Under the pieces are notes generated by a model. It saw only the letters and a list, made by a program, of their open reading frames with translations, was not told the DNA's origin and ran no database searches. The position numbers were made by a program, and so were the translations under genes. 64,000 bases of DNA from Candidatus Aminicenantes bacterium (GTDB taxonomy: Bacteria; Acidobacteriota; Aminicenantia; S016-38): NCBI GenBank assembly GCA_027068075.1, contig JAMOUJ010000006.1:218706-282705 (forward strand), given 5' to 3'. Below, one piece after another: positions 11,608 to 40,217 of the stretch. How positions within the stretch are numbered: position 1 is the first letter of the stretch; each line of letters opens with the position of its first letter.

Positions 11608-11685
11608 TGGCGGGGCCGACGGGATTTGAACCCGCGACCTCTGGCGTGACAGGCCAGCGCTCTAACCGGGTTGAGCTACGACCCC
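11608..11685 (-). tRNA. tRNA-Asp (anticodon GTC)
   Basis: Reverse complement folds as a cloverleaf: acceptor GGGGTCG/CGGCCCC, anticodon loop CTGTCAC, T-loop TTCAAAT, 3' CCA encoded. Confidence 0.85.
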
Positions 11686-11692
11686 GCTACAC

Positions 11693-11764
11693 TGGGCGGT
11701 AGAGGACTTGAACCTCTGGCCCCCGGCTTGTAAGGCCAGTGCTCTACCACTGAGCTAACCGCCC
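11693..11764 (-). tRNA. tRNA-Val (anticodon TAC)
   Basis: Reverse complement GGGCGGTTAGCTCAGTGGTAGAGCACTGGCCTTACAAGCCGG...ACCGCCCA. Anticodon loop CTTACAA, T-loop TTCAAGT, no encoded CCA. Confidence 0.85.
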
Positions 11765-11775
11765 AATGGCCTATT

Positions 11776-12336
11776 TTATAAGAAGCCACCGGGTTTGTCA
11801 ACTTCTCCAGAAAAATTAGGGAAGGTTATCCTCACCCTGTTGCCGTCCAGGACTTCTATTTCCAGGGGAGTGTTGAAGAGTTTTCCCACCCCCTTCAGGG
11901 CTCCCAGGAAAATTCCCATAAGGCCCCGATGGGATTTGTAGGTCATGATAAGGGTGTTGGGGCCTTCCCATTGATAGGAGAACCGGGGAGGCCGGGCCTC
12001 TGGAATGTTGGTGGTTACCCTGCGGTGGATTTCGTCCATTTTCAGCAGGAATTCTCTGGCGTTGGTAATTCCCCGGTAATAGGGCTTGTAGACCTTTCTG
12101 GTGTAAACCGTCACCCAGTATTCCCCGAAGGCATCTGCCAATTCCTCCGGGGTCATGTTCAGGTGTCTGGACATGGAGTTCAGGATGGCCAGGACGGTTT
12201 CGTCGGGGATGTTTTCCCCCACGGAGAAGGTTTTTCCCACGGGAAGCCCTGCTCCGTCAAGTATGTCATACCATTTCTCCTGGCCGAAGTGTTCCACCAC
12301 CAGATCCCTTATGGCGTCAACTATGCAACCCTTCAT
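11776..12336 (-). CDS. Stand-alone H-NOX (heme NO/O2-binding, HNOB) domain protein, copy 1
   Basis: 186 aa. Aligns along its length with Tt H-NOX: 'MKGCIV..', proximal His in 'FLLKMDEIHRRV', 'PPRF', and heme-propionate motif Y-x-S-x-R ('YKSHRGL'). Confidence 0.85.
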   Translation of the reverse strand: MKGCIVDAIRDLVVEHFGQEKWYDILDGAGLPVGKTFSVGENIPDETVLAILNSMSRHLNMTPEELADAFGEYWVTVYTRKVYKPYYRGITNAREFLLKMDEIHRRVTTNIPEARPPRFSYQWEGPNTLIMTYKSHRGLMGIFLGALKGVGKLFNTPLEIEVLDGNRVRITFPNFSGEVDKPGGFL

Positions 12337-12346
12337 GGCGAGTTTC

Positions 12347-12739
12347 TTAAATTTCCCCCAGGTCCTTCAGGGCCTCCAGGAAGGAGACCTCGTATTTCTT
12401 CATGATGACTCTGGCCAGGCCCAGGTTTCCCTGCCTGCTTATGGCCACTCCGTGATAATGTCTGCTCCCGAGGTGGCGGAGAAGAAGGTAGATTTTATCG
12501 GTGGTTATTAGAATGTCCTCGGTTTCTCCCACCACCTCCGGTCCTCCCAGAAGTTCCAGGGCCTTGTTGTTTTCCTTCAGAACCTCGGCGTATGTGGCGG
12601 AGCCCACGGTCACATCAAACTGGGGGTTGGTGGAAAAGGAGGCCAGGGCCAGTCCGGAATCAATGCTGGCTATGGCGGTCCCCACCAGTTCAGGTATTTC
12701 CTCAGCGCATTTTTTCAATATCTCCTGAAGATTTGGCAT
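12347..12739 (-). CDS. Roadblock/LC7 (MglB-like) domain protein
   Basis: 130 aa. Near-identical to the C-terminal domain of the response regulator at 13397..14524 ('VGETEDILITTDK.Y.L.R.LG..HY.GVA..R.GNLGLARVIMKKYE..FLEALK.LGEI'). RBS GGAGGT lies 8 nt upstream. Confidence 0.75.
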   Translation of the reverse strand: MPNLQEILKKCAEEIPELVGTAIASIDSGLALASFSTNPQFDVTVGSATYAEVLKENNKALELLGGPEVVGETEDILITTDKIYLLLRHLGSRHYHGVAISRQGNLGLARVIMKKYEVSFLEALKDLGEI

Positions 12740-12771
12740 CTTAACTTACCTCCACTTAAAGAATCATATTT

Positions 12772-12799
12772 ATTGTAACACCTTTTTTGATTTTGTAAA
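12772..12799 (-). promoter_or_regulatory. Putative sigma-70 promoter (TTTACA-16-TGtTACAAT) for the roadblock/H-NOX-1 operon
   Basis: Minus-strand sequence TTTACAAAATCAAAAAAGGTGTTACAAT sits about 30 nt upstream of the ATG at 12739, in an AT-rich 120-bp intergenic region. Confidence 0.4.
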
Positions 12800-12859
12800 A
12801 ATTTTAAAAACTTACTTAAAATTCTGGCCTCACCTCCGCCGTGGTTTTTCCGGGTTTAA

Positions 12860-13384
12860 CTATTCGGGAAACACTATCCTGACTTCGTTTTCAGATATCT
12901 GCTCCACCTTGAGTGGGGTGCGGAAGAACTTTCCCACCCCTTTCACCAGGCCCGTGAAGATGCCCACAAGCCCCCGGGGGGATTTGTATTTCATTATGAG
13001 GGTGTTGGGGCCTTCCCATCGGTATTCAAACCTGGGGGGATGGGCGTTGGGGATGTTCTGGGTTGCCTTGCGGTGAATTTCGTCCATCTTGGACAGGAGT
13101 TCCTTGGCGCTGGTTATGCCCCGGTAATAGGGCTTGTAAACCTTGGGCATGTAAACCGTCACCCAGTATTCCCCGAAGGCATCAGCCACCTCTTCCGGGG
13201 AAAGGTTCAGGGTCTTTGATATGGATTCCACCACCGCCAGGATGGTTTCGTCCGGAACATCCTCCCTCAGGGAGAAGGTGGTAGTCCGATCAAGGCCTGC
13301 GTTTTCCAGGATGTCCTTCCACTTGTCCATCCCGAAGTTTTCAATGACCAGGTCCTTGATGGCGTCTATGATAACGCCCTTCAT
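12860..13384 (-). CDS. Stand-alone H-NOX domain protein, copy 2 (paralog of 11776..12336)
   Basis: 174 aa. Same motifs as copy 1: 'MKGVIIDAIKDL', 'MDEIHRKAT', 'PPRF', 'YKSPRGL'. Starts 12 nt downstream of the response-regulator gene stop. Confidence 0.85.
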   Translation of the reverse strand: MKGVIIDAIKDLVIENFGMDKWKDILENAGLDRTTTFSLREDVPDETILAVVESISKTLNLSPEEVADAFGEYWVTVYMPKVYKPYYRGITSAKELLSKMDEIHRKATQNIPNAHPPRFEYRWEGPNTLIMKYKSPRGLVGIFTGLVKGVGKFFRTPLKVEQISENEVRIVFPE

Positions 13385-13396
13385 ATCATGCCTCCA

Positions 13397-14524
13397 TTAG
13401 ATTTCGCCCAGTTCTTTCAGGGCTTCCAGGAAGGCTATCTCGTATTTTTTCATTATCACCCTGGCCAACCCCAGATTACCCTTTCTGGTCATGGCCACTC
13501 CCTGGTAATGTTTCTCACCCAACTGTCTCACCAGGATGTAGACCTTGTCGGTGGTTATGAGGATGTCTTCGGTTTCTCCCACCACCTCCGCTCCTCCCAG
13601 GAGTTCCAGGGCCCTGTTGTTCTGTTTTAGCACCTCCGCGTAAACAGCGGAAGCCACGGTGTCGTCAAAACTGGGATCCGAGGAATATGTGGCTATGGGC
13701 ATGCCGGATTCAATGTTCACTATGGAAGTTGCCAGAATTTCTGGAATTTCTCCCGCCGACTTTTCCAGGATTTTTTGGATTTCAGACATTTTATCACCTC
13801 CTTTGATAATCACCTCAAATTCTTCCTTCTCCCTGGTCCTCTCCTCGTCCTTGTACCTGGCGGCCTCCAGGACCAGGTGCATGATGTTCTCCCCTATCAA
13901 GCCATCCCTTTCTTCCCTGTAGGGTTCCGATGAGAAGGTTCCCCCCTCCCACTTCATCATCTCCATGAAGGCATCCATTCCCAGGAGGCCTCCTTCGGTT
14001 TTTGCCCAGACCACCTTTCCGTTCTTTATGCCCATTTCACCCTTGAATCCGATGGAATTTTCCACATTGAGCACCACATCCTTGTTGTAGAAGGACAGGA
14101 ACTGAAGGATGTCCACCAGTTCAAGGTCGCTCAGGGAGACCTCAAAGCCCTTGGTCTGGAAAATTTTTCCGATAATCCTCAGCAGTTGGTTCAGGTCCAC
14201 GGGCTTTTCAATGTAGAGGAGGGCTCCGGATTTCTTGGCCTTTTCCTTGAAGGCCGGGGATCCGTAGGCGGTAATGAGGATGACCCTGGTCTGGGGCATG
14301 TTTTCCCTCACCCAGAGGAGAAGTTCAAACCCGTCCTTGCCTGGCAGTTTTATGTCGGAGATAACCAGGTCCACGGGATGTTTTTTCAAAAACTCCACCG
14401 CCTCCTCGTAACTGTAGGCCCCGTAGCATTCCAGTTTTTTGCTCAAAAATTCCATCATGGAAAGGGTTATGTTGACTTCGTCGTCCACGATGAGAACTTT
14501 GGGTTTCTTCTTACGCTTAGCCAT
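13397..14524 (-). CDS. Response regulator: receiver domain + DUF4388-like domain + C-terminal Roadblock/LC7 domain
   Basis: Receiver 'KVLIVDDEVN...DLVISDIKLPGKDGFELL...ILITAYG'. Middle 'LSDLELVDILQFL...GKVVWA' resembles DUF4388. The last ~125 aa are paralogous to the 130-aa Roadblock protein. Start placed at 'MAKRKKKPKVLIVDDE' (14524); the longer ORF to 14680 is not receiver-like. Confidence 0.75.
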   Translation of the reverse strand: MAKRKKKPKVLIVDDEVNITLSMMEFLSKKLECYGAYSYEEAVEFLKKHPVDLVISDIKLPGKDGFELLLWVRENMPQTRVILITAYGSPAFKEKAKKSGALLYIEKPVDLNQLLRIIGKIFQTKGFEVSLSDLELVDILQFLSFYNKDVVLNVENSIGFKGEMGIKNGKVVWAKTEGGLLGMDAFMEMMKWEGGTFSSEPYREERDGLIGENIMHLVLEAARYKDEERTREKEEFEVIIKGGDKMSEIQKILEKSAGEIPEILATSIVNIESGMPIATYSSDPSFDDTVASAVYAEVLKQNNRALELLGGAEVVGETEDILITTDKVYILVRQLGEKHYQGVAMTRKGNLGLARVIMKKYEIAFLEALKELGEI

Positions 14525-14536
14525 CGCCCTTAAACA

Positions 14537-14552
14537 AGCAAAAAACTTGCCA
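14537..14552 (-). promoter_or_regulatory. Candidate sigma-54 (-24/-12) promoter TGGCAA-N5-TTGCT upstream of the RR/H-NOX operon
   Basis: The minus strand reads TGGCAAGTTTTTTGCTT. It matches the TGGCAC-N5-TTGCW consensus with one mismatch and correct GG-N10-GC spacing. A divergent NtrC-type activator is encoded 1 kb away. The predicted TSS is only about 2 nt before the ATG (leaderless-like), which is the main caveat. Confidence 0.35.
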
Positions 14553-14607
14553 GAATTCCTCCGCTCCAGTCCTTGCCTTTTCGTCGCCGTGTGGTAAAAT
14601 TTTTTCC

Positions 14608-15513
14608 ATGGAAGATTTGCTACCCACAAACTTGGTGGGGGTTTTTTGTCAGAGGGAGGATGGGATAACCCTTTATCCAAAGGACTTTGAAAGGCTTTTT
14701 TCTCCAGAGAAGGAGAGGATCCTTCAGGAAATAGAAACTGGAAAGAAAAGTGTCACCTTCGGAAGTTGGGACTGGGAAGTCTTTGATGTTACCGAAGGGG
14801 TGGGCGACGGAGAGATTTACAAACTGCTCATCTTCGTTCCCCTCAACAGGGAAATGACCCACATATATTCCATGATAATCCACGAACTGAAAAACCCCAT
14901 AGCGGCCATAAGAGCCATGGTCCAGGTGATGGAAACCAGCATTCTGGAAGGCACCCTGGCCAGGGACAAATTGCTCCAGTATTCCTCGCTGATCCTGGAG
15001 GAGATAGACCGAATGAACCGGTTGCTTTCCTCCATAATAAAACTGGCGAAGCCCCGCACCAAGTTCCAATATCGTTTTGACCTGGTGGAGGAAGTTAAAA
15101 AGGCCATGGGAACCTGGAGCGAGGAGTTTCGGGCTCGGGGGATAAAAATGGTTCTGGTTTCCAATGTGGAGAAGGTGTTTTTCCTGGGCAATCCCGACGA
15201 AATACACCAGATAATCAACAACCTATTGAGGAATTCCAGGGAAGCCTTAGAAGGGGTAAAGAAGCCCAGGGTGGAGGTGAATTTGTGGGATAAGGGGAGC
15301 GAAATCCTCCTCACCGTGAAAGACAACGGCCGTGGAATTCCTCCGGATGTTCTTCAGAAAATAAAAACTTCCTTCTACTCCTCCAAGCCCCACGGACTGG
15401 GGTTGGGTCTCTTCGTGGTGAAGAGCATCGTGAGAAGGTATCGGGGAACCATAAGCATCAATTCGGAGCCCGGAAAGGGCTGCGAGGTGGTGGTTCGTTT
15501 TCCCAAGCGATGA
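14608..15513 (+). CDS. Soluble sensor histidine kinase (short N-terminal input region, HisKA, HATPase_c)
   Basis: H-box 'IHELKNPIAAIRAMV' and G-boxes 'DNGRGIP...GLGLGL'. No TM segments. Its stop overlaps the downstream RR start (ATGA). Confidence 0.8.
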   Translation: MEDLLPTNLVGVFCQREDGITLYPKDFERLFSPEKERILQEIETGKKSVTFGSWDWEVFDVTEGVGDGEIYKLLIFVPLNREMTHIYSMIIHELKNPIAAIRAMVQVMETSILEGTLARDKLLQYSSLILEEIDRMNRLLSSIIKLAKPRTKFQYRFDLVEEVKKAMGTWSEEFRARGIKMVLVSNVEKVFFLGNPDEIHQIINNLLRNSREALEGVKKPRVEVNLWDKGSEILLTVKDNGRGIPPDVLQKIKTSFYSSKPHGLGLGLFVVKSIVRRYRGTISINSEPGKGCEVVVRFPKR

Positions 15514-16751
15514 GCGACATTCTGATAATAGAAGACGATGGGGCCTTTGCCCTGGCCCTTCAGGATTATTTATCCTCCCGGGGATTTACGGTGGATGTGG
15601 TTTTTTCAGCCCGCAGGGCCCTGGATGTGGTCAGGTGGAATCCCCCCAGGGTGGTAATTCTTGACCTCTTCCTTCCCGACGCCAACGGCCTGGACCTCAT
15701 TCCTGAACTTTCCACGGCAGGGGTTTTCATCGTGGTGATCACCGGTTCAGAGGAGGTAAGGCTGGCGGTGGAGGCCATGAGGAGGGGGGCCCACGATTTT
15801 TTGGTCAAGCCCGTGGACCTGGAGGCCCTGGCCCTGAAACTGGAAAGAAATTTTCCAGCGGAATCGGAGCACGGCCTCGTGGGGAATTCCCCGGCCATGA
15901 GGAGGGTGGTGGAGGAAGCGAAACTGGCTTCACGCGGCAGGGCCAGCGTCCTCATCCTGGGGGAGACCGGGGTGGGCAAGGAGGAGGTGGCCCGGGCCAT
16001 TTACAGGTTGTCGGGTAGAAGGGGTAAGTTCGTGGCAGTGAACGCTTCGGCGGTTCCCGAGGCCCTCTTTGAATCCGAACTCTTCGGTCATAAGAGAGGG
16101 GCCTTCACCGGGGCCTCCTATTCCAAGAAGGGCCTTCTGGAGGAAGCCCACGGCGGGGTTTTCTTTCTGGACGAAATCTCCGAAATGCCACCTCACCTTC
16201 AGGCGAAACTCCTGAGGGTTCTGGAGACCAGGAGGCTCCGCAGGCTGGGTGAGACCCGGGATGTAGAGGTGGACTTTAAGTTTATAGCGTCTTCCAACCT
16301 GAGCCTGGACGGGGTCCGTCAGCGGTTGAGGGAGGATTTATTCTACAGGATATCCACCTTCATCATAGAAATACCTCCCCTGAGGGAAAGGAAAGAAGAC
16401 ATACTTCCCCTGGCCAAGCATTTTCTGAGGGAGTTCGGAAGGGACAAGGGGATATTCGGGTTGAGCCCCGCCGCCGAGGAACTTCTACAAAACTATCCGT
16501 GGCCCGGAAATGTTCGGGAACTGAGAAACGAAATAGAAAGGGCATGTATAGTTTGTGGCGGCAAACAGTTGGAGCCATCGCATTTCAGTCCCAACATAAG
16601 GTCCCGGACCAGAATTTTGACCCTGGAGGAGATGGAGAGGGAATACATAAAAAAGGTGGTTCAACTCTGCGGTGGGAACAAGAGCAAGGCCGCCAGGCTC
16701 CTGGGAATTTCCCGGCCCACCCTCCGCAGGAAACTTTCCGGCAAGCCTTGA
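15510..16751 (+). CDS. Sigma-54-dependent transcriptional activator, NtrC family (REC-AAA+-HTH)
   Basis: Receiver 'ILIIEDDG...VVILDLFLPD'. AAA+ 'VLILGETGVGKEEVARAIY', GAFTGA motif 'GAFTGA', 'ESELFGH'. C-terminal Fis-type HTH 'AARLLGISRPTLRRKL'. Confidence 0.9.
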   Translation: MSDILIIEDDGAFALALQDYLSSRGFTVDVVFSARRALDVVRWNPPRVVILDLFLPDANGLDLIPELSTAGVFIVVITGSEEVRLAVEAMRRGAHDFLVKPVDLEALALKLERNFPAESEHGLVGNSPAMRRVVEEAKLASRGRASVLILGETGVGKEEVARAIYRLSGRRGKFVAVNASAVPEALFESELFGHKRGAFTGASYSKKGLLEEAHGGVFFLDEISEMPPHLQAKLLRVLETRRLRRLGETRDVEVDFKFIASSNLSLDGVRQRLREDLFYRISTFIIEIPPLRERKEDILPLAKHFLREFGRDKGIFGLSPAAEELLQNYPWPGNVRELRNEIERACIVCGGKQLEPSHFSPNIRSRTRILTLEEMEREYIKKVVQLCGGNKSKAARLLGISRPTLRRKLSGKP

Positions 16752-16813: not shown

Positions 16814-19186
16814 ATGATGATGAAACTTAAGAGAAAAGGTATGTGGAGTTCAGCCCTTTTGTTCTCTATGGTCGCCCTTCTGGGGGCCCGGGACTCCCAC
16901 CCCGACCTGGCGGTGAAGGCCCTGAGGTACTTTACACAGCAACGGAGGGTGGAGGTGAGGATCTGCAACCAGGGGAGTTCCTCCTCCCCGGAGTTTGCGG
17001 TGAGTATTCTGGGCAATTTTACCGGGAGAGAATGGAAGGAAGTCCTTCGCCTCTCAACCATGGGCCTCAGGTCGGGGGAGTGCAGGGTTCTCATAGAAGA
17101 CCTGAAAGGCAGTGTTTTACCCCGGCGGGTGAAGGCGGTGGTGGACCCGGAAGACGCCGTGGCGGAGATGAACGAAAACAACAATTCCCTGGAAGTGGGC
17201 CTGAAGGAAGGCTCTCCCCTATACGCCCACATGGGAGGACTGGAGATCACCGTCACCGCCCCCCGCATGGAAATTCCTCTGAAGGAACTGCCCGCCGCCG
17301 CTACGGTGGTGGGCCAGGATTTTCTGGAGACCATGCCCAGAACCGTGGGAGCCGAGGAGGCCCTGGCCTTGGTTCCCGGGGTGAGGGTGGAAAATCAGGC
17401 CAACGGGGAAAGGGTTCACATTTCCATAAGGGGGCATGGGATCCTCACGGAAAGGGGCATCCGGGGGATCAAAATTCTCGTGGACGGTCTTCCCCTGAAC
17501 GATCCCACGGGGTTTGCTCCGGACCTCTACGATGTGGATTGGGCCACGGTGAAGAGGATTGAGGTTTTGAGGGGACCTTCCGCTTCCCTCTACGGGGGAG
17601 GGGCCGCCGGAGGCATAATAAACATTGAAACCATAGACGGGTACAGTGAGCCCCTGCGCTTGAGCGGTCTTTTTTCCCTGGGTTCCTACGCCTTCGGCAA
17701 GGCCCTTTTGAACGCTGGAGGGACCCTGGGGAAGGTGAATTATCGGATCTCCGCCTCCCGGGCCCAGGGCGACGGCTACAGGGAACACACCAGGTTCCAC
17801 GGCAACAACCTGTACAGCAAGTTCCGGTGGACCCCCAGGGATTCGGTCAGGCTCACCGCCATAGTGGCCTGGACGGATTTTTACAACGACAACGCCGAGG
17901 GTTTGAACCTGGAATGGCTCCGCCAGGACCGGAGAATGGCCAATCCCGACGCCATAATTTACAACGAATATCAGAGGACCGGCAGACTTACCGCCGGAGT
18001 CTCCGGTGAGGTGGACTTAGGGGAGAATCAGGGCTTTTCCTTTGCCCTTTATCACCGGGGCACAGAATACGAGGAGTCCGTTCCGTCCTCGGTGGACCAC
18101 AGGTTTTACAGGGCTCCGGGATTTATATTCCAGTACAGGATCACCTTTGATGCCGGCTCCCTGGTCAACCACCTCAGCGTGGGGACGGAGTTCCAGTGGC
18201 AGAGAATCCACGACTTCCGCCATCCCAATCTGGGAAAGGCGGTGGAGGGTCCGGAACTTCTCTCCGACCAGTGGATTTATCAGAAGAACCTGGGCCTTTA
18301 CCTCATAGACAGGGTGGAACTGGGGAAGAACTGGGGGGTGGTGTTTAACCTGAGGCACGACGAGATAGCCAACGAATTGAGGGACCAGTTGAAATCCGGA
18401 GGAATAGACCGCTCCGGCAGGGCCGATTTCAAAAAGACCACCTTTAAACTGGGGGTGGCCTGGAATCCCTGGGCCCACATGGGGTTCTACGCCAACCTGG
18501 GCACCGGTTTTCTACCCCCATCCACGGAGGAACTGGCCAACAACCCCCGGGCCATGGGAGGGTTCAACACCTCCCTCAAGCCGGCCCGTTCCGTGGGCGC
18601 GGAGGTAGGCGTCAGGGGTTATCTCAAAAATTCCCTCTTCTACGACATAACCCTGTTTCACATCCACACCGAGGACGACTTCGGCCGCTACAGAATTCCC
18701 TCCCGTCCCCTGGAGACCTTTTACAGAAATGTGGGAAGCACCAGGAGGTACGGTCTGGAAACCTTCCTGGCCTGGTATCCCATAAGCAACCTGAGCGTGA
18801 GACTTGCCTATACCCTGGCCGATTTCAAATACCTTTCCTTTAAGGTGGACGAGGAGGAGATTTCCGGAACCTTCCTTCCCAACTCCCCGAGGCATAGATT
18901 TTTCCTTGACCTTGGTTACAGGCCCCGGGAAAGATTATCTTTGGGATTGAGTCTGGAAGGCCAGAGCCGCTCATATGTGGACCAGAAAAACGATGTCTGG
19001 ATTGACGGTTATGTTCTCTTAAACGCCAGGGTTTCCTTCAGGATTTCTTCCCGGGTGGAACTCGTCCTCTACGGGAGGAACATCCTGAATCAGGAATACA
19101 TAGCCTTTACGGAGCCCGATCCCGACGGAAACTCCTTCCAGCCAGCGCCCACCCGGGAGGTATTTCTTTCCCTGAGGTTCCGCTGA
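16814..19186 (+). CDS. TonB-dependent outer-membrane receptor with an N-terminal CARDB-like extension
   Basis: Signal peptide, TonB-box-like 'EITVTAP', plug 'VLRGPSASLYGGGAAGGIINI', long beta-barrel, C-terminal '...FLSLRFR'. Residues ~30-130 resemble a CARDB fold ('VEVRICNQG...NENNNSLEV'). Confidence 0.8.
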   Translation: MMMKLKRKGMWSSALLFSMVALLGARDSHPDLAVKALRYFTQQRRVEVRICNQGSSSSPEFAVSILGNFTGREWKEVLRLSTMGLRSGECRVLIEDLKGSVLPRRVKAVVDPEDAVAEMNENNNSLEVGLKEGSPLYAHMGGLEITVTAPRMEIPLKELPAAATVVGQDFLETMPRTVGAEEALALVPGVRVENQANGERVHISIRGHGILTERGIRGIKILVDGLPLNDPTGFAPDLYDVDWATVKRIEVLRGPSASLYGGGAAGGIINIETIDGYSEPLRLSGLFSLGSYAFGKALLNAGGTLGKVNYRISASRAQGDGYREHTRFHGNNLYSKFRWTPRDSVRLTAIVAWTDFYNDNAEGLNLEWLRQDRRMANPDAIIYNEYQRTGRLTAGVSGEVDLGENQGFSFALYHRGTEYEESVPSSVDHRFYRAPGFIFQYRITFDAGSLVNHLSVGTEFQWQRIHDFRHPNLGKAVEGPELLSDQWIYQKNLGLYLIDRVELGKNWGVVFNLRHDEIANELRDQLKSGGIDRSGRADFKKTTFKLGVAWNPWAHMGFYANLGTGFLPPSTEELANNPRAMGGFNTSLKPARSVGAEVGVRGYLKNSLFYDITLFHIHTEDDFGRYRIPSRPLETFYRNVGSTRRYGLETFLAWYPISNLSVRLAYTLADFKYLSFKVDEEEISGTFLPNSPRHRFFLDLGYRPRERLSLGLSLEGQSRSYVDQKNDVWIDGYVLLNARVSFRISSRVELVLYGRNILNQEYIAFTEPDPDGNSFQPAPTREVFLSLRFR

Positions 19187-39341: not shown

Positions 39342-40217
39342 CTACTGATTTTCCAGGAGGGTCAGAATGGCCGGGTCGTCCCTCCAGCCCTTTCTGACCT
39401 TTACCAGGAGGTCAAGGTATATCTTCTTGCCGAAGATGAATTCAAGTTCTTCCCTGGCCTTTTTCCCCACTATTTTCAGGTTTTCTCCCCCCTTTCCTAT
39501 AACGATTTTTTTGTGGTTTTCCTTCTCCACGAAGATGGTGGCTGAAATGTAGAGAAGGTCTCCGCGATCCTCCATCTCTTCCACCAGAACTCCCACGGAG
39601 TAGGGGAGTTCTGCCCGGAGGCGGTGTAAAAGTTTCTCCCTTATTATCTCAGAGACCAGGAATTTATCCGATATGTTGGTAACCGTTTGGGGAGGAAAGA
39701 GGGGCTCCCCTTCGGGCAGGTGCTTGTAGATCAGGTCTTCCAGCAGGTCCAAATTGGTGCCCTTGTAGGCGGATACAGGCACTATCTCCTCAAAATCCAG
39801 AAGGTCCTTGTAGAGGTCTATGACCGGAAGGATCTTCCCCTTGGACACCAGATCTATTTTGTTTATAACCAGGAATTTCTTCGGTTTTACCTCCTTCAGC
39901 ATGTTCACCACGAACTGGTCACCCTTGCCGAAGGGCTGGGTTATGTCAACCACTAAAAGGATGAGGTCCGTATCCCTCAGGGATTCGTAAACCCTCTCCA
40001 TCATCAGTTCGTTGAGTTTGTGAAGTGGGCGGTGGATCCCCGGATTATCCATGAATACTATTTGACCCTTCTCCGTGGTTTTTATCCCCAGGATCCTGTG
40101 CCGGGTGGTCTGGGGGGTGGGGGAGACTATGGTTACCTTCCTCCCCAGCATGGCGTTGAGGAGCGTGGACTTACCCACATTGGGTCTTCCTATTATGGAG
40201 ACAAAACCCGCCTTCAT
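39342..40217 (-). CDS. era: GTPase Era
   Basis: 'GFVSIIGRPNVGKSTLLN' G1, 'DTPG', 'NKID' and a C-terminal KH domain. Confidence 0.9.
   Translation of the reverse strand: MKAGFVSIIGRPNVGKSTLLNAMLGRKVTIVSPTPQTTRHRILGIKTTEKGQIVFMDNPGIHRPLHKLNELMMERVYESLRDTDLILLVVDITQPFGKGDQFVVNMLKEVKPKKFLVINKIDLVSKGKILPVIDLYKDLLDFEEIVPVSAYKGTNLDLLEDLIYKHLPEGEPLFPPQTVTNISDKFLVSEIIREKLLHRLRAELPYSVGVLVEEMEDRGDLLYISATIFVEKENHKKIVIGKGGENLKIVGKKAREELEFIFGKKIYLDLLVKVRKGWRDDPAILTLLENQ

Follow-up and report, generated by a model that had tools for sequence, protein, structure and literature searches.

Conserved adjacency of stand-alone H-NOX genes and Roadblock modules in Aminicenantes and other Acidobacteriota, a candidate partnership for heme-based gas sensing

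Bacterial H-NOX proteins are currently known to partner with histidine kinases or GGDEF/EAL enzymes or to be fused to chemotaxis receptors; in the kinase type, HnoX binds HnoK and modulates its autophosphorylation. In a published H-NOX neighborhood network, the families listed are kinase/response-regulator, GGDEF/EAL, FIST, Nudix, and others of this kind; its legend and text name no Roadblock family. Roadblock proteins have been implicated in NTPase regulation (PMC4316618), Roadblock-related output domains occur on archaeal receiver proteins (PMC5847659), and neighborhoods of PATAN proteins and MglB homologs have already been published (Makarova 2006, as cited in PMC4316618). In addition, a heme globin fused to a Roadblock/LC7 domain, HGbRL, was described from Methylacidiphilum infernorum (PMC4476040), and a PATAN output domain binds PilB1/PilC in Synechocystis (bioRxiv 10.1101/2021.06.11.447907). 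Here we describe a locus of a Candidatus Aminicenantes bacterium in which two stand-alone H-NOX genes each lie directly behind a Roadblock module, an arrangement that recurs across several lineages. The locus lies within a 64-kb window, which is the whole stretch of DNA analyzed (contig JAMOUJ010000006.1), and all coordinates given without a locus number are window positions. No literature linking H-NOX to Roadblock, MglB, PATAN, or DUF4388 was found in a search whose coverage left out most subscription journals, in agreement with a first-pass annotation, made from the sequence alone, that knew of no description of the partnership. The only match for H-NOX with Roadblock or MglB was an unrelated paper on Asgard archaea, in which H-NOX appears solely as a structural neighbor of TRAPPC3/V4R. 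The new element is H-NOX with an unreported Roadblock/PATAN partner; the architecture of the regulator was already known.

The genes of the locus are split between the two strands. Four co-directional open reading frames (ORFs) on the minus strand follow one another in the order regulator, H-NOX2, free Roadblock, and H-NOX1. The response regulator (375 aa; 13397..14524) carries a C-terminal Roadblock domain and is followed after 12 nt by H-NOX2 (174 aa; 12860..13384); a free Roadblock-fold protein of 130 aa (12347..12739) comes next, across an AT-rich gap of 120 nt, and is followed after 10 nt by H-NOX1 (186 aa; 11776..12336). A short soluble histidine kinase (301 aa; 14608..15513) and an NtrC-type sigma-54 activator (413 aa; 15510..16751), whose start overlaps the kinase stop by 4 nt, are encoded divergently on the plus strand. 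One gene separates the kinase from H-NOX2, and three separate it from H-NOX1. The positions of the two H-NOX genes, 10 to 12 nt behind Roadblock modules, and the divergent pair of a soluble kinase and an NtrC-family activator had been given in the first-pass annotation, and the ORFs, gaps, and domain matches bear them out.

The adjacency of H-NOX and Roadblock is far beyond chance and recurs in independent genome loci of the same Roadblock subfamily. A scan for this subfamily, restricted to one genome per species, yielded 23 loci, 14 of which contained H-NOX. In 12 of the 14, the H-NOX gene was immediately 3' on the same strand, with Roadblock-to-H-NOX gaps of 10 to 63 nt; it was convergent in one and at the other end of the cassette described below in one. 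The pairing occurred in Aminicenantes, in other Acidobacteriota, in Thermoanaerobaculia, and in one unclassified metagenome-assembled genome (MAG). Loci L005-L008, from Aminicenantes plus one Acidobacteria MAG, repeat the layout of the window, with a kinase and an NtrC gene diverging from REC-PATAN-Roadblock and H-NOX genes, and carry additional H-NOX or Roadblock copies. A pair of free Roadblock and H-NOX genes was also present in another low-GC organism (L032). In no locus examined were H-NOX and Roadblock fused; they were always separate genes, the longer Roadblock proteins not having been scanned with HNOB.

A second type of context was a cassette found in nine loci (L009, L012, L016, L019, L020, L021, L022, L023, and L027; for example, L020:8145-10978), hosted mostly by Thermoanaerobaculia, with one Acidobacteriota and one unclassified MAG. 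Its gene order is a ParA/MinD-like ATPase, a protein X, PATAN-Roadblock, and H-NOX. The ATPase has the deviant Walker A motif KGGVGKT, and X has 190 to 232 aa and no Pfam match. The cassette H-NOX is about 25% identical to the window H-NOX and carries a V4R-like Cys motif, CxxxGDxxC. No kinase gene lies inside any of the nine cassettes, and the arrangement suggests that the Roadblock module works with a ParA-type ATPase rather than with a small GTPase. L019 and L023 encode a free Roadblock protein, so the linkage of H-NOX to Roadblock holds even where no PATAN domain is fused. The same two loci have a small downstream ORF whose N terminus may resemble that of a truncated hemoglobin. Beside the cassette of L009, on the opposite strand (L009:11075-13602, minus strand), are a multiheme cytochrome c (Cytochrom_c3_2, with a weak c552-like match) and a Tll0287-like protein.

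Both window H-NOX proteins matched HNOB (PF07700) strongly, H-NOX1 at 143.7 bits (6.2e-42) and H-NOX2 at 141.1 bits (4e-41) against a cut-off of 25.5, and the alignment ran from end to end (profile positions 1-163 of 163). The two are 67% identical to each other, and the nearest solved relative of H-NOX2 is the Nostoc H-NOX Alr2278 (E=1e-20). His104 aligns with the heme-ligating His105 of the Nostoc protein, and YKSPR/YKSHR aligns with YQSTR. In an alignment of 17 sequences, which include the window's two proteins, partners derived from the surveyed loci, and a Tt H-NOX reference, His104, P116/P117, and Y133-S135-R137 were invariant in 17 of 17. The window proteins have Ile where Tt H-NOX has the distal Tyr140 and Ile/Val where it has Trp9. 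They thus appear to lack the distal Tyr140 and its Trp9/Asn74 hydrogen-bond network by which the O2-binding subclass is recognized; the significance of the distal Tyr for O2-binding H-NOX proteins has been described (PMC8738867). As predicted from sequence, the window H-NOX proteins are heme competent and of the NO/CO type, and NO is their probable ligand.

The Roadblock modules were harder to assign. The free 130-aa protein gave no Robl_LC7 (PF03259) match even at E=10, the regulator C terminus reached E=0.043 and 14.0 bits, under the cut-off of 23, and no significant NCBIfam match was obtained for the modules. The free protein and the regulator C terminus are 68% identical. A profile built from 33 homologs matched Myxococcus MglC (PDB 7ct3) at E=3e-6, and an AlphaFold (AF2) model of the free protein (pLDDT 95, pTM 0.88; secondary-structure order alpha-beta-beta-alpha-beta-beta-beta-alpha) matched MglB 6hjm in Foldseek at TM 0.81 and E=3e-8. 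Each of the top 40 Foldseek matches was to MglB or another Roadblock protein, and archaeal Roadblock members as well as LAMTOR subunits were among them, with TM up to 0.82. The Pfam failure, taken with the MglC profile match and the MglB fold match, indicates that the assignment to the Roadblock fold, as modeled, is correct and that the modules form a distinct subfamily; the initial call of Roadblock therefore stands for the fold, although the Pfam Robl_LC7 threshold was not reached. A search of 1.84 billion representative proteins placed 281 clusters in the subfamily at E<=1e-10. In the 150 best of 1218 representative proteins, the domain was C-terminal in chains of 76 to 879 aa, with recurrent sizes of about 125 aa (free), 240 to 300 aa (PATAN-Roadblock), and 365 to 470 aa (REC-PATAN-Roadblock), and many long forms bear the JGI label "CheY-like / Roadblock-LC7-MglB." PATAN is the constant partner of the subfamily, and the first-pass annotation, sound in pointing to the Roadblock linkage, gave PATAN too little weight. 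The only cultured organism found with the subfamily was Thermotomaculum hydrothermale (L115:6001-6411; AP017470.1; 60% identical).

The regulator consists, as first described, of REC, DUF4388, and Roadblock domains. REC occupies residues 1-123 (14156..14524; PF00072, 81.6 bits, 5.8e-23), PATAN (DUF4388/PatA_N) residues 132-230 (13835..14131; PF14332, 49.6 bits against a cut-off of 25, 4.9e-13), and Roadblock residues 244-375 (13400..13795). This REC-PATAN-Roadblock order is unlike the PATAN-REC order of PatA. The phospho-acceptor residues DD, D, T, and K of REC are present in the sequence. The start codon was first placed at TTG 14680; it is almost certainly ATG 14524, and the resulting 375-aa product has an identical counterpart in the database, P0155. 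Modeled with AF2 at full length, the regulator has three well-folded domains joined by flexible, low-confidence linkers (pTM 0.39). The kinase contains HisKA (7e-10) and HATPase_c (1e-24), and its N-terminal segment of about 85 aa matched no known sensor domain and has no long hydrophobic segment. The activator has the order REC-AAA+-HTH_8 (REC, 2e-20; Sigma54_activat, 4e-57; HTH_8, 1e-15), and the GAFTGA motif is present. Orthologs of the kinase adjoin REC-PATAN-Roadblock regulators in L005-8, L025, L033, and L112-114.

The minus-strand genes had initially been called consistent with a single operon, which the promoter elements make doubtful. The element TGGCAAGTTTTTTGCT (14537..14552, minus strand; 13 nt 5' of the regulator ATG) is a perfect -24/-12 sigma-54 element (TGGCA-N6-TTGCT) and is the sole match in the 64 kb, against 0.05 expected. 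The same element occupies the same place before the orthologous regulator gene in L005, L006, L007/L031, and L033, and it also precedes the deltaproteobacterial regulator homologs of L111-L113. The adjacent NtrC-type activator would be the obvious candidate driver of this promoter. A consensus scan of the 120-nt gap that separates H-NOX2 from the free Roadblock gene found a sigma-70-like element, TTTACA-16-TACAAT with TG (12799-12772, minus strand; 10/12 matches), which is a consensus match only. Because a sigma-54 promoter precedes the regulator and a sigma-70-like one the free Roadblock gene, the four genes probably form two transcription units rather than one operon, an inducible unit of regulator and H-NOX2 and a separately expressed unit of free Roadblock and H-NOX1. 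A four-genome alignment upstream of the sigma-54 promoter was confounded by the kinase coding sequence. In the Aminicenantes-type loci, the -12 element ends just 11 to 13 nt before the regulator start codon (window 14522-14552, minus strand; L005:4831, L006:6387, L007:9241), a spacing from which a sigma-54 transcript with no leader, or almost none, is expected; despite this, the window has a weak AAGGG directly 5' of the regulator ATG. On the divergent side, a conserved TAAAAT lies 8 nt 5' of the kinase ATG.

The flanks of the locus look like housekeeping genes. Downstream of H-NOX1 are tRNA-Val and tRNA-Asp (11608-11765, minus strand) and then a signal peptidase gene, beyond which are ORFs that, from their translations, we take to encode Trk potassium uptake and DnaE. 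Within the last codons of H-NOX1, directly 5' of tRNA-Val(TAC) and tRNA-Asp(GTC), lies a near-consensus sigma-70 promoter, TTGACA-17-TAAAAT (11/12; 11773-11801, minus strand), so these tRNA genes are probably transcribed from their own embedded promoter. In relatives of the window, a second module lies 3 to 5 kb past the H-NOX genes (L006:12250-14768, L007:14418-17897, and L031:10014-12521) and consists of a sigma-54 promoter, a REC-PATAN regulator, and another NtrC-type activator, with another short kinase in L007; where relatives carry this module, the window has tRNA-Val/Asp and lepB. On the activator side, the locus is bordered by a TonB-dependent receptor (16814-19186, plus strand; Plug and beta-barrel) directly 3' of the activator gene, with a seemingly unusual N-terminal CARDB domain. 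A P-loop/NKxD scan and the gene map revealed no Ras-like or MglA-like GTPase ORF in the 64-kb window, which extends the original statement that the locus has no GTPase; the sole small GTPase-like ORF (39342-40217) is presumably Era-like, to judge by its N-terminal sequence. The window also contains no ParA-like ATPase or homolog of X, and no detoxification gene lies within the locus.

Relatives with no H-NOX place the locus in a wider frame. Deltaproteobacterial REC-PATAN-Roadblock regulators, about 40% identical to that of the window, occur with a 286- to 317-aa kinase and an NtrC-type activator and with no H-NOX, and these loci often carry two such regulators. H-NOX was also absent from the eight Myxococcota Roadblock loci; in L014 and in the Pfam-annotated L028-L030 (which correspond to L010, L011, and one further contig), Roadblock is paired with a PATAN protein of about 270 to 290 aa. 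One Thermodesulfobacteriota locus has the regulator and the short kinase together with a small protein that weakly resembles Roadblock. The kinase, the NtrC-type activator, the REC-PATAN-Roadblock regulator, and the sigma-54 promoter are thus an older conserved system. Since the deltaproteobacterial set exists without H-NOX and the Myxococcota have Roadblock with PATAN, H-NOX looks like an addition made to this system in the Aminicenantes/Acidobacteriota branch; its constant neighbor is Roadblock. In the H-NOX-free relatives, a small protein of 112 to 125 aa with weak Robl_LC7 similarity (E=0.004; L025:7927-8304 and L111:3223-3591, both minus strand) adjoins the short kinase or sits between REC-PATAN-Roadblock genes; it may provide the input that H-NOX provides in the window.

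Seen from the H-NOX side, the linkage was rare. A reciprocal survey of metagenomes used a close-clade query and is biased to relatives of the window H-NOX; it covered 80 loci whose H-NOX was 38 to 85% identical to H-NOX2, and four of these, the three closest (at least 60% identical) plus L070, had Roadblock or PATAN neighbors. The H-NOX proteins of L034-L110 (about 173 aa; 38 to 57% identical to H-NOX2), with source names that include Nitrospirae, Electrothrix, Bacteroidetes, and the archaeon Methanoperedens, mostly had no kinase, GGDEF, MCP, or Roadblock neighbor. The same-strand neighbors of this clade (n=38) included Prismane/Hcp in 5 cases, a 319-aa beta-propeller protein in 4, and NADH/rubredoxin-type oxidoreductases in 2; the Prismane/Hcp and NADH oxidoreductase neighbors give the clade a flavor of NO metabolism.

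Direct coupling of H-NOX to the Roadblock module, by physical contact between the two proteins, is the reading that we favor, with about even confidence, because Roadblock is the companion of H-NOX both in the two-component version and in the kinase-free ATPase cassette. That the adjacency is conserved, even in those cassettes and with H-NOX proteins that share only about 25% identity with the window pair, speaks for a functional tie between H-NOX and Roadblock. Further support comes from the conserved sigma-54 promoter before the regulator gene, from the binding of PilB1/PilC by PATAN in Synechocystis, and from HGbRL as a natural fusion of a heme sensor to Roadblock. Several observations weigh against direct coupling. 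The 4-in-80 result is one. Another is that kinases lie within 1 to 5 kb of some cassette-type loci (L019, L023, and L027). The Thermotomaculum hydrothermale homolog is encoded by an orphan gene that has neither H-NOX nor PATAN nor a kinase next to it, and the trees of the H-NOX and Roadblock paralogs showed no clean co-divergence of pairs, the duplications looking lineage specific. In addition, the full-regulator model (pTM 0.39) has no fixed domain arrangement and gives no structural hint on signal transfer. The most direct challenge is L033, in which regulator, H-NOX, kinase, and NtrC genes share one strand and H-NOX stands 41 nt upstream of a sensor-less kinase, as in the classical hnoX-hnoK picture. 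Under that classical explanation, H-NOX would bind the short kinase and modulate its autophosphorylation, phosphate would pass from the kinase to the NtrC-type activator and the REC-PATAN-Roadblock regulator, Roadblock and PATAN would be purely downstream outputs, and adjacency would reflect a shared pathway. It suits a kinase that is soluble and has no recognizable sensor domain and that forms a conserved cognate set with the activator and regulator; because this set pre-exists without H-NOX, control of the kinase by H-NOX is a real alternative. We nevertheless consider this main and serious rival less likely than direct coupling, given that the same short kinase architecture occurs without H-NOX in the deltaproteobacterial relatives, that in the nine ATPase cassettes H-NOX follows (PATAN-)Roadblock with no kinase gene inside, and that H-NOX1 is paired with the free Roadblock protein under its own predicted promoter, three genes away from the kinase. 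H-NOX-Roadblock coupling and H-NOX-kinase control could both be true at once.

Two further explanations concern what the Roadblock adjacency would mean. One holds that H-NOX gates Roadblock as a regulator, of the GTPase-activating protein (GAP) or guanine nucleotide exchange factor (GEF) type, of an NTPase encoded elsewhere, either a ParA/MinD-type ATPase or an MglA-like GTPase. NO would then control cell polarity, pilus placement, or the positioning of a cellular structure, and the two-component part would only set expression and add a phosphorylation input. The Roadblock fold is nearest to the polarity proteins MglB and MglC, the cassettes place a deviant-Walker-A ATPase two genes upstream of the Roadblock-H-NOX pair, and Roadblock proteins are implicated in NTPase regulation, with MglB homologs as neighbors of PATAN proteins (PMC4316618). 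The absence from the 64-kb window of an MglA-like GTPase, a ParA-like ATPase, and an X homolog counts against this explanation, which we regard as unlikely. We also know of no Roadblock protein that regulates a ParA/MinD ATPase, and to our knowledge MglC, the nearest sequence relative, is not itself a GAP. The other explanation treats H-NOX as an NO-binding or NO-buffering accessory that has merely come under the sigma-54 system, with the Roadblock adjacency mechanistically meaningless. The broader 173-aa clade, mostly without a signaling neighbor and often beside Prismane/Hcp and NADH oxidoreductase, would fit such a role, but the Roadblock-then-H-NOX order recurs with two H-NOX clades about 25% identical and in two unrelated operon types, and the window locus has no detoxification gene. 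Because that gene order is recurrent across such divergent H-NOX clades, buffering or hitch-hiking is very unlikely.

In the favored reading of direct H-NOX-Roadblock coupling, the locus would respond to NO (or CO) through H-NOX sensors grafted onto a kinase/NtrC/REC-PATAN-Roadblock system. The kinase would phosphorylate both the NtrC-type activator and the REC-PATAN-Roadblock regulator, and the activator would switch on the sigma-54 promoter of the regulator/H-NOX2 unit, making a feed-forward or autoregulatory loop, while the free Roadblock/H-NOX1 pair would be expressed from its own sigma-70-like promoter. Each H-NOX would bind the Roadblock module encoded just upstream. Because Roadblock domains are normally dimeric, the free module may in addition dimerize with the fused one. 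Heme ligation would then alter what the PATAN-Roadblock output binds, and its target may be a protein, for example an NTPase encoded elsewhere or a component of type IV pili or of cell polarity. We infer these phosphotransfer routes and this downstream target. A more specific proposal, quite unlikely in our estimate, is that H-NOX docked on a Roadblock dimer forms a two-protein switch for a nucleotide-dependent positioning or polarity machine, acting on the ParA/MinD-type ATPase in the kinase-free cassette and on a PATAN-bound target, such as the type IV pilus motor, in the window. H-NOX shares its fold with V4R/Bet3, and Roadblock shares its fold with longin, so the complex would correspond, in bacteria, to the Bet3-plus-longin/Roadblock pairing of eukaryotic NTPase regulators of the TRAPP and Ragulator type. 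If it exists, such a docked switch would be the first case of NO control over an NTPase-regulator module of this kind.

A conserved pairing with Roadblock (and PATAN) would add a fourth route, by protein-protein interaction, to the three partner types of H-NOX signaling and, if true, would connect NO sensing to the machinery of polarity, pili, and NTPase switches. It would also supply the first candidate input signal for the large, uncharacterized REC-PATAN-Roadblock family. The lineages concerned, Aminicenantes, Acidobacteriota, and Thermoanaerobaculia, are poorly studied and anaerobic, and a direct test of the hypothesis would call for four small soluble proteins. The first-pass suggestion that Roadblock may be a new transducer or output partner for heme-based gas sensing is upheld in part: the linkage is conserved, direct transduction is a proposal, and a globin-Roadblock precedent exists in HGbRL (PMC4476040).

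Each described system resembles the window locus in some respects and departs from it in others. HGbRL (PMC4476040), a putative globin-coupled sensor, likewise couples a heme gas-sensor domain to Roadblock/LC7; however, its heme fold is a globin fused in one chain, whereas H-NOX and Roadblock are encoded by adjacent genes. HGbRL is also limited to a single genus, and PATAN, REC, a kinase, and NtrC are all absent from its context. The actinobacterial conservons (CvnA kinase, CvnB Roadblock, CvnC, and CvnD GTPase) also combine a kinase and Roadblock in one gene set, but they have a GTPase, DUF742, and a membrane kinase, and they have no H-NOX, PATAN, or sigma-54 activator. The Roadblock modules share their fold with MglB/MglC of the Myxococcus MglA polarity module (TM of about 0.8 to MglB and a profile-level link to MglC), and both groups are neighbors or fusion partners of PATAN. 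Unlike MglB/MglC, the window modules fail Pfam Robl_LC7 and have no MglA-like GTPase at their locus; the subfamily domain is always C-terminal (free, after PATAN, or after REC-PATAN), and its Myxococcota members have no H-NOX neighbor. The PatA-type regulators of cyanobacteria (PixG, PixE, and PatA) similarly combine PATAN with a receiver, PATAN being a likely protein-binding output; the window regulator differs in its REC-PATAN order, its additional C-terminal Roadblock domain, a kinase that is of plain HisKA type instead of CheA-like, and its predicted sigma-54-dependent expression. The HnoX/HnoK networks of Shewanella, Vibrio, and Legionella (Hnox2) share with the window stand-alone H-NOX proteins with the proximal His and YxSxR, a soluble sensor-less kinase, more than one response regulator, and a predicted NO-type (non-O2) pocket. 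Unlike those networks, the window locus has no c-di-GMP enzyme and has two H-NOX paralogs, each directly behind a Roadblock module, with the kinase nonadjacent and divergent, and its outputs are an NtrC-type activator and a REC-PATAN-Roadblock regulator instead of EAL, HD-GYP, or HTH regulators.

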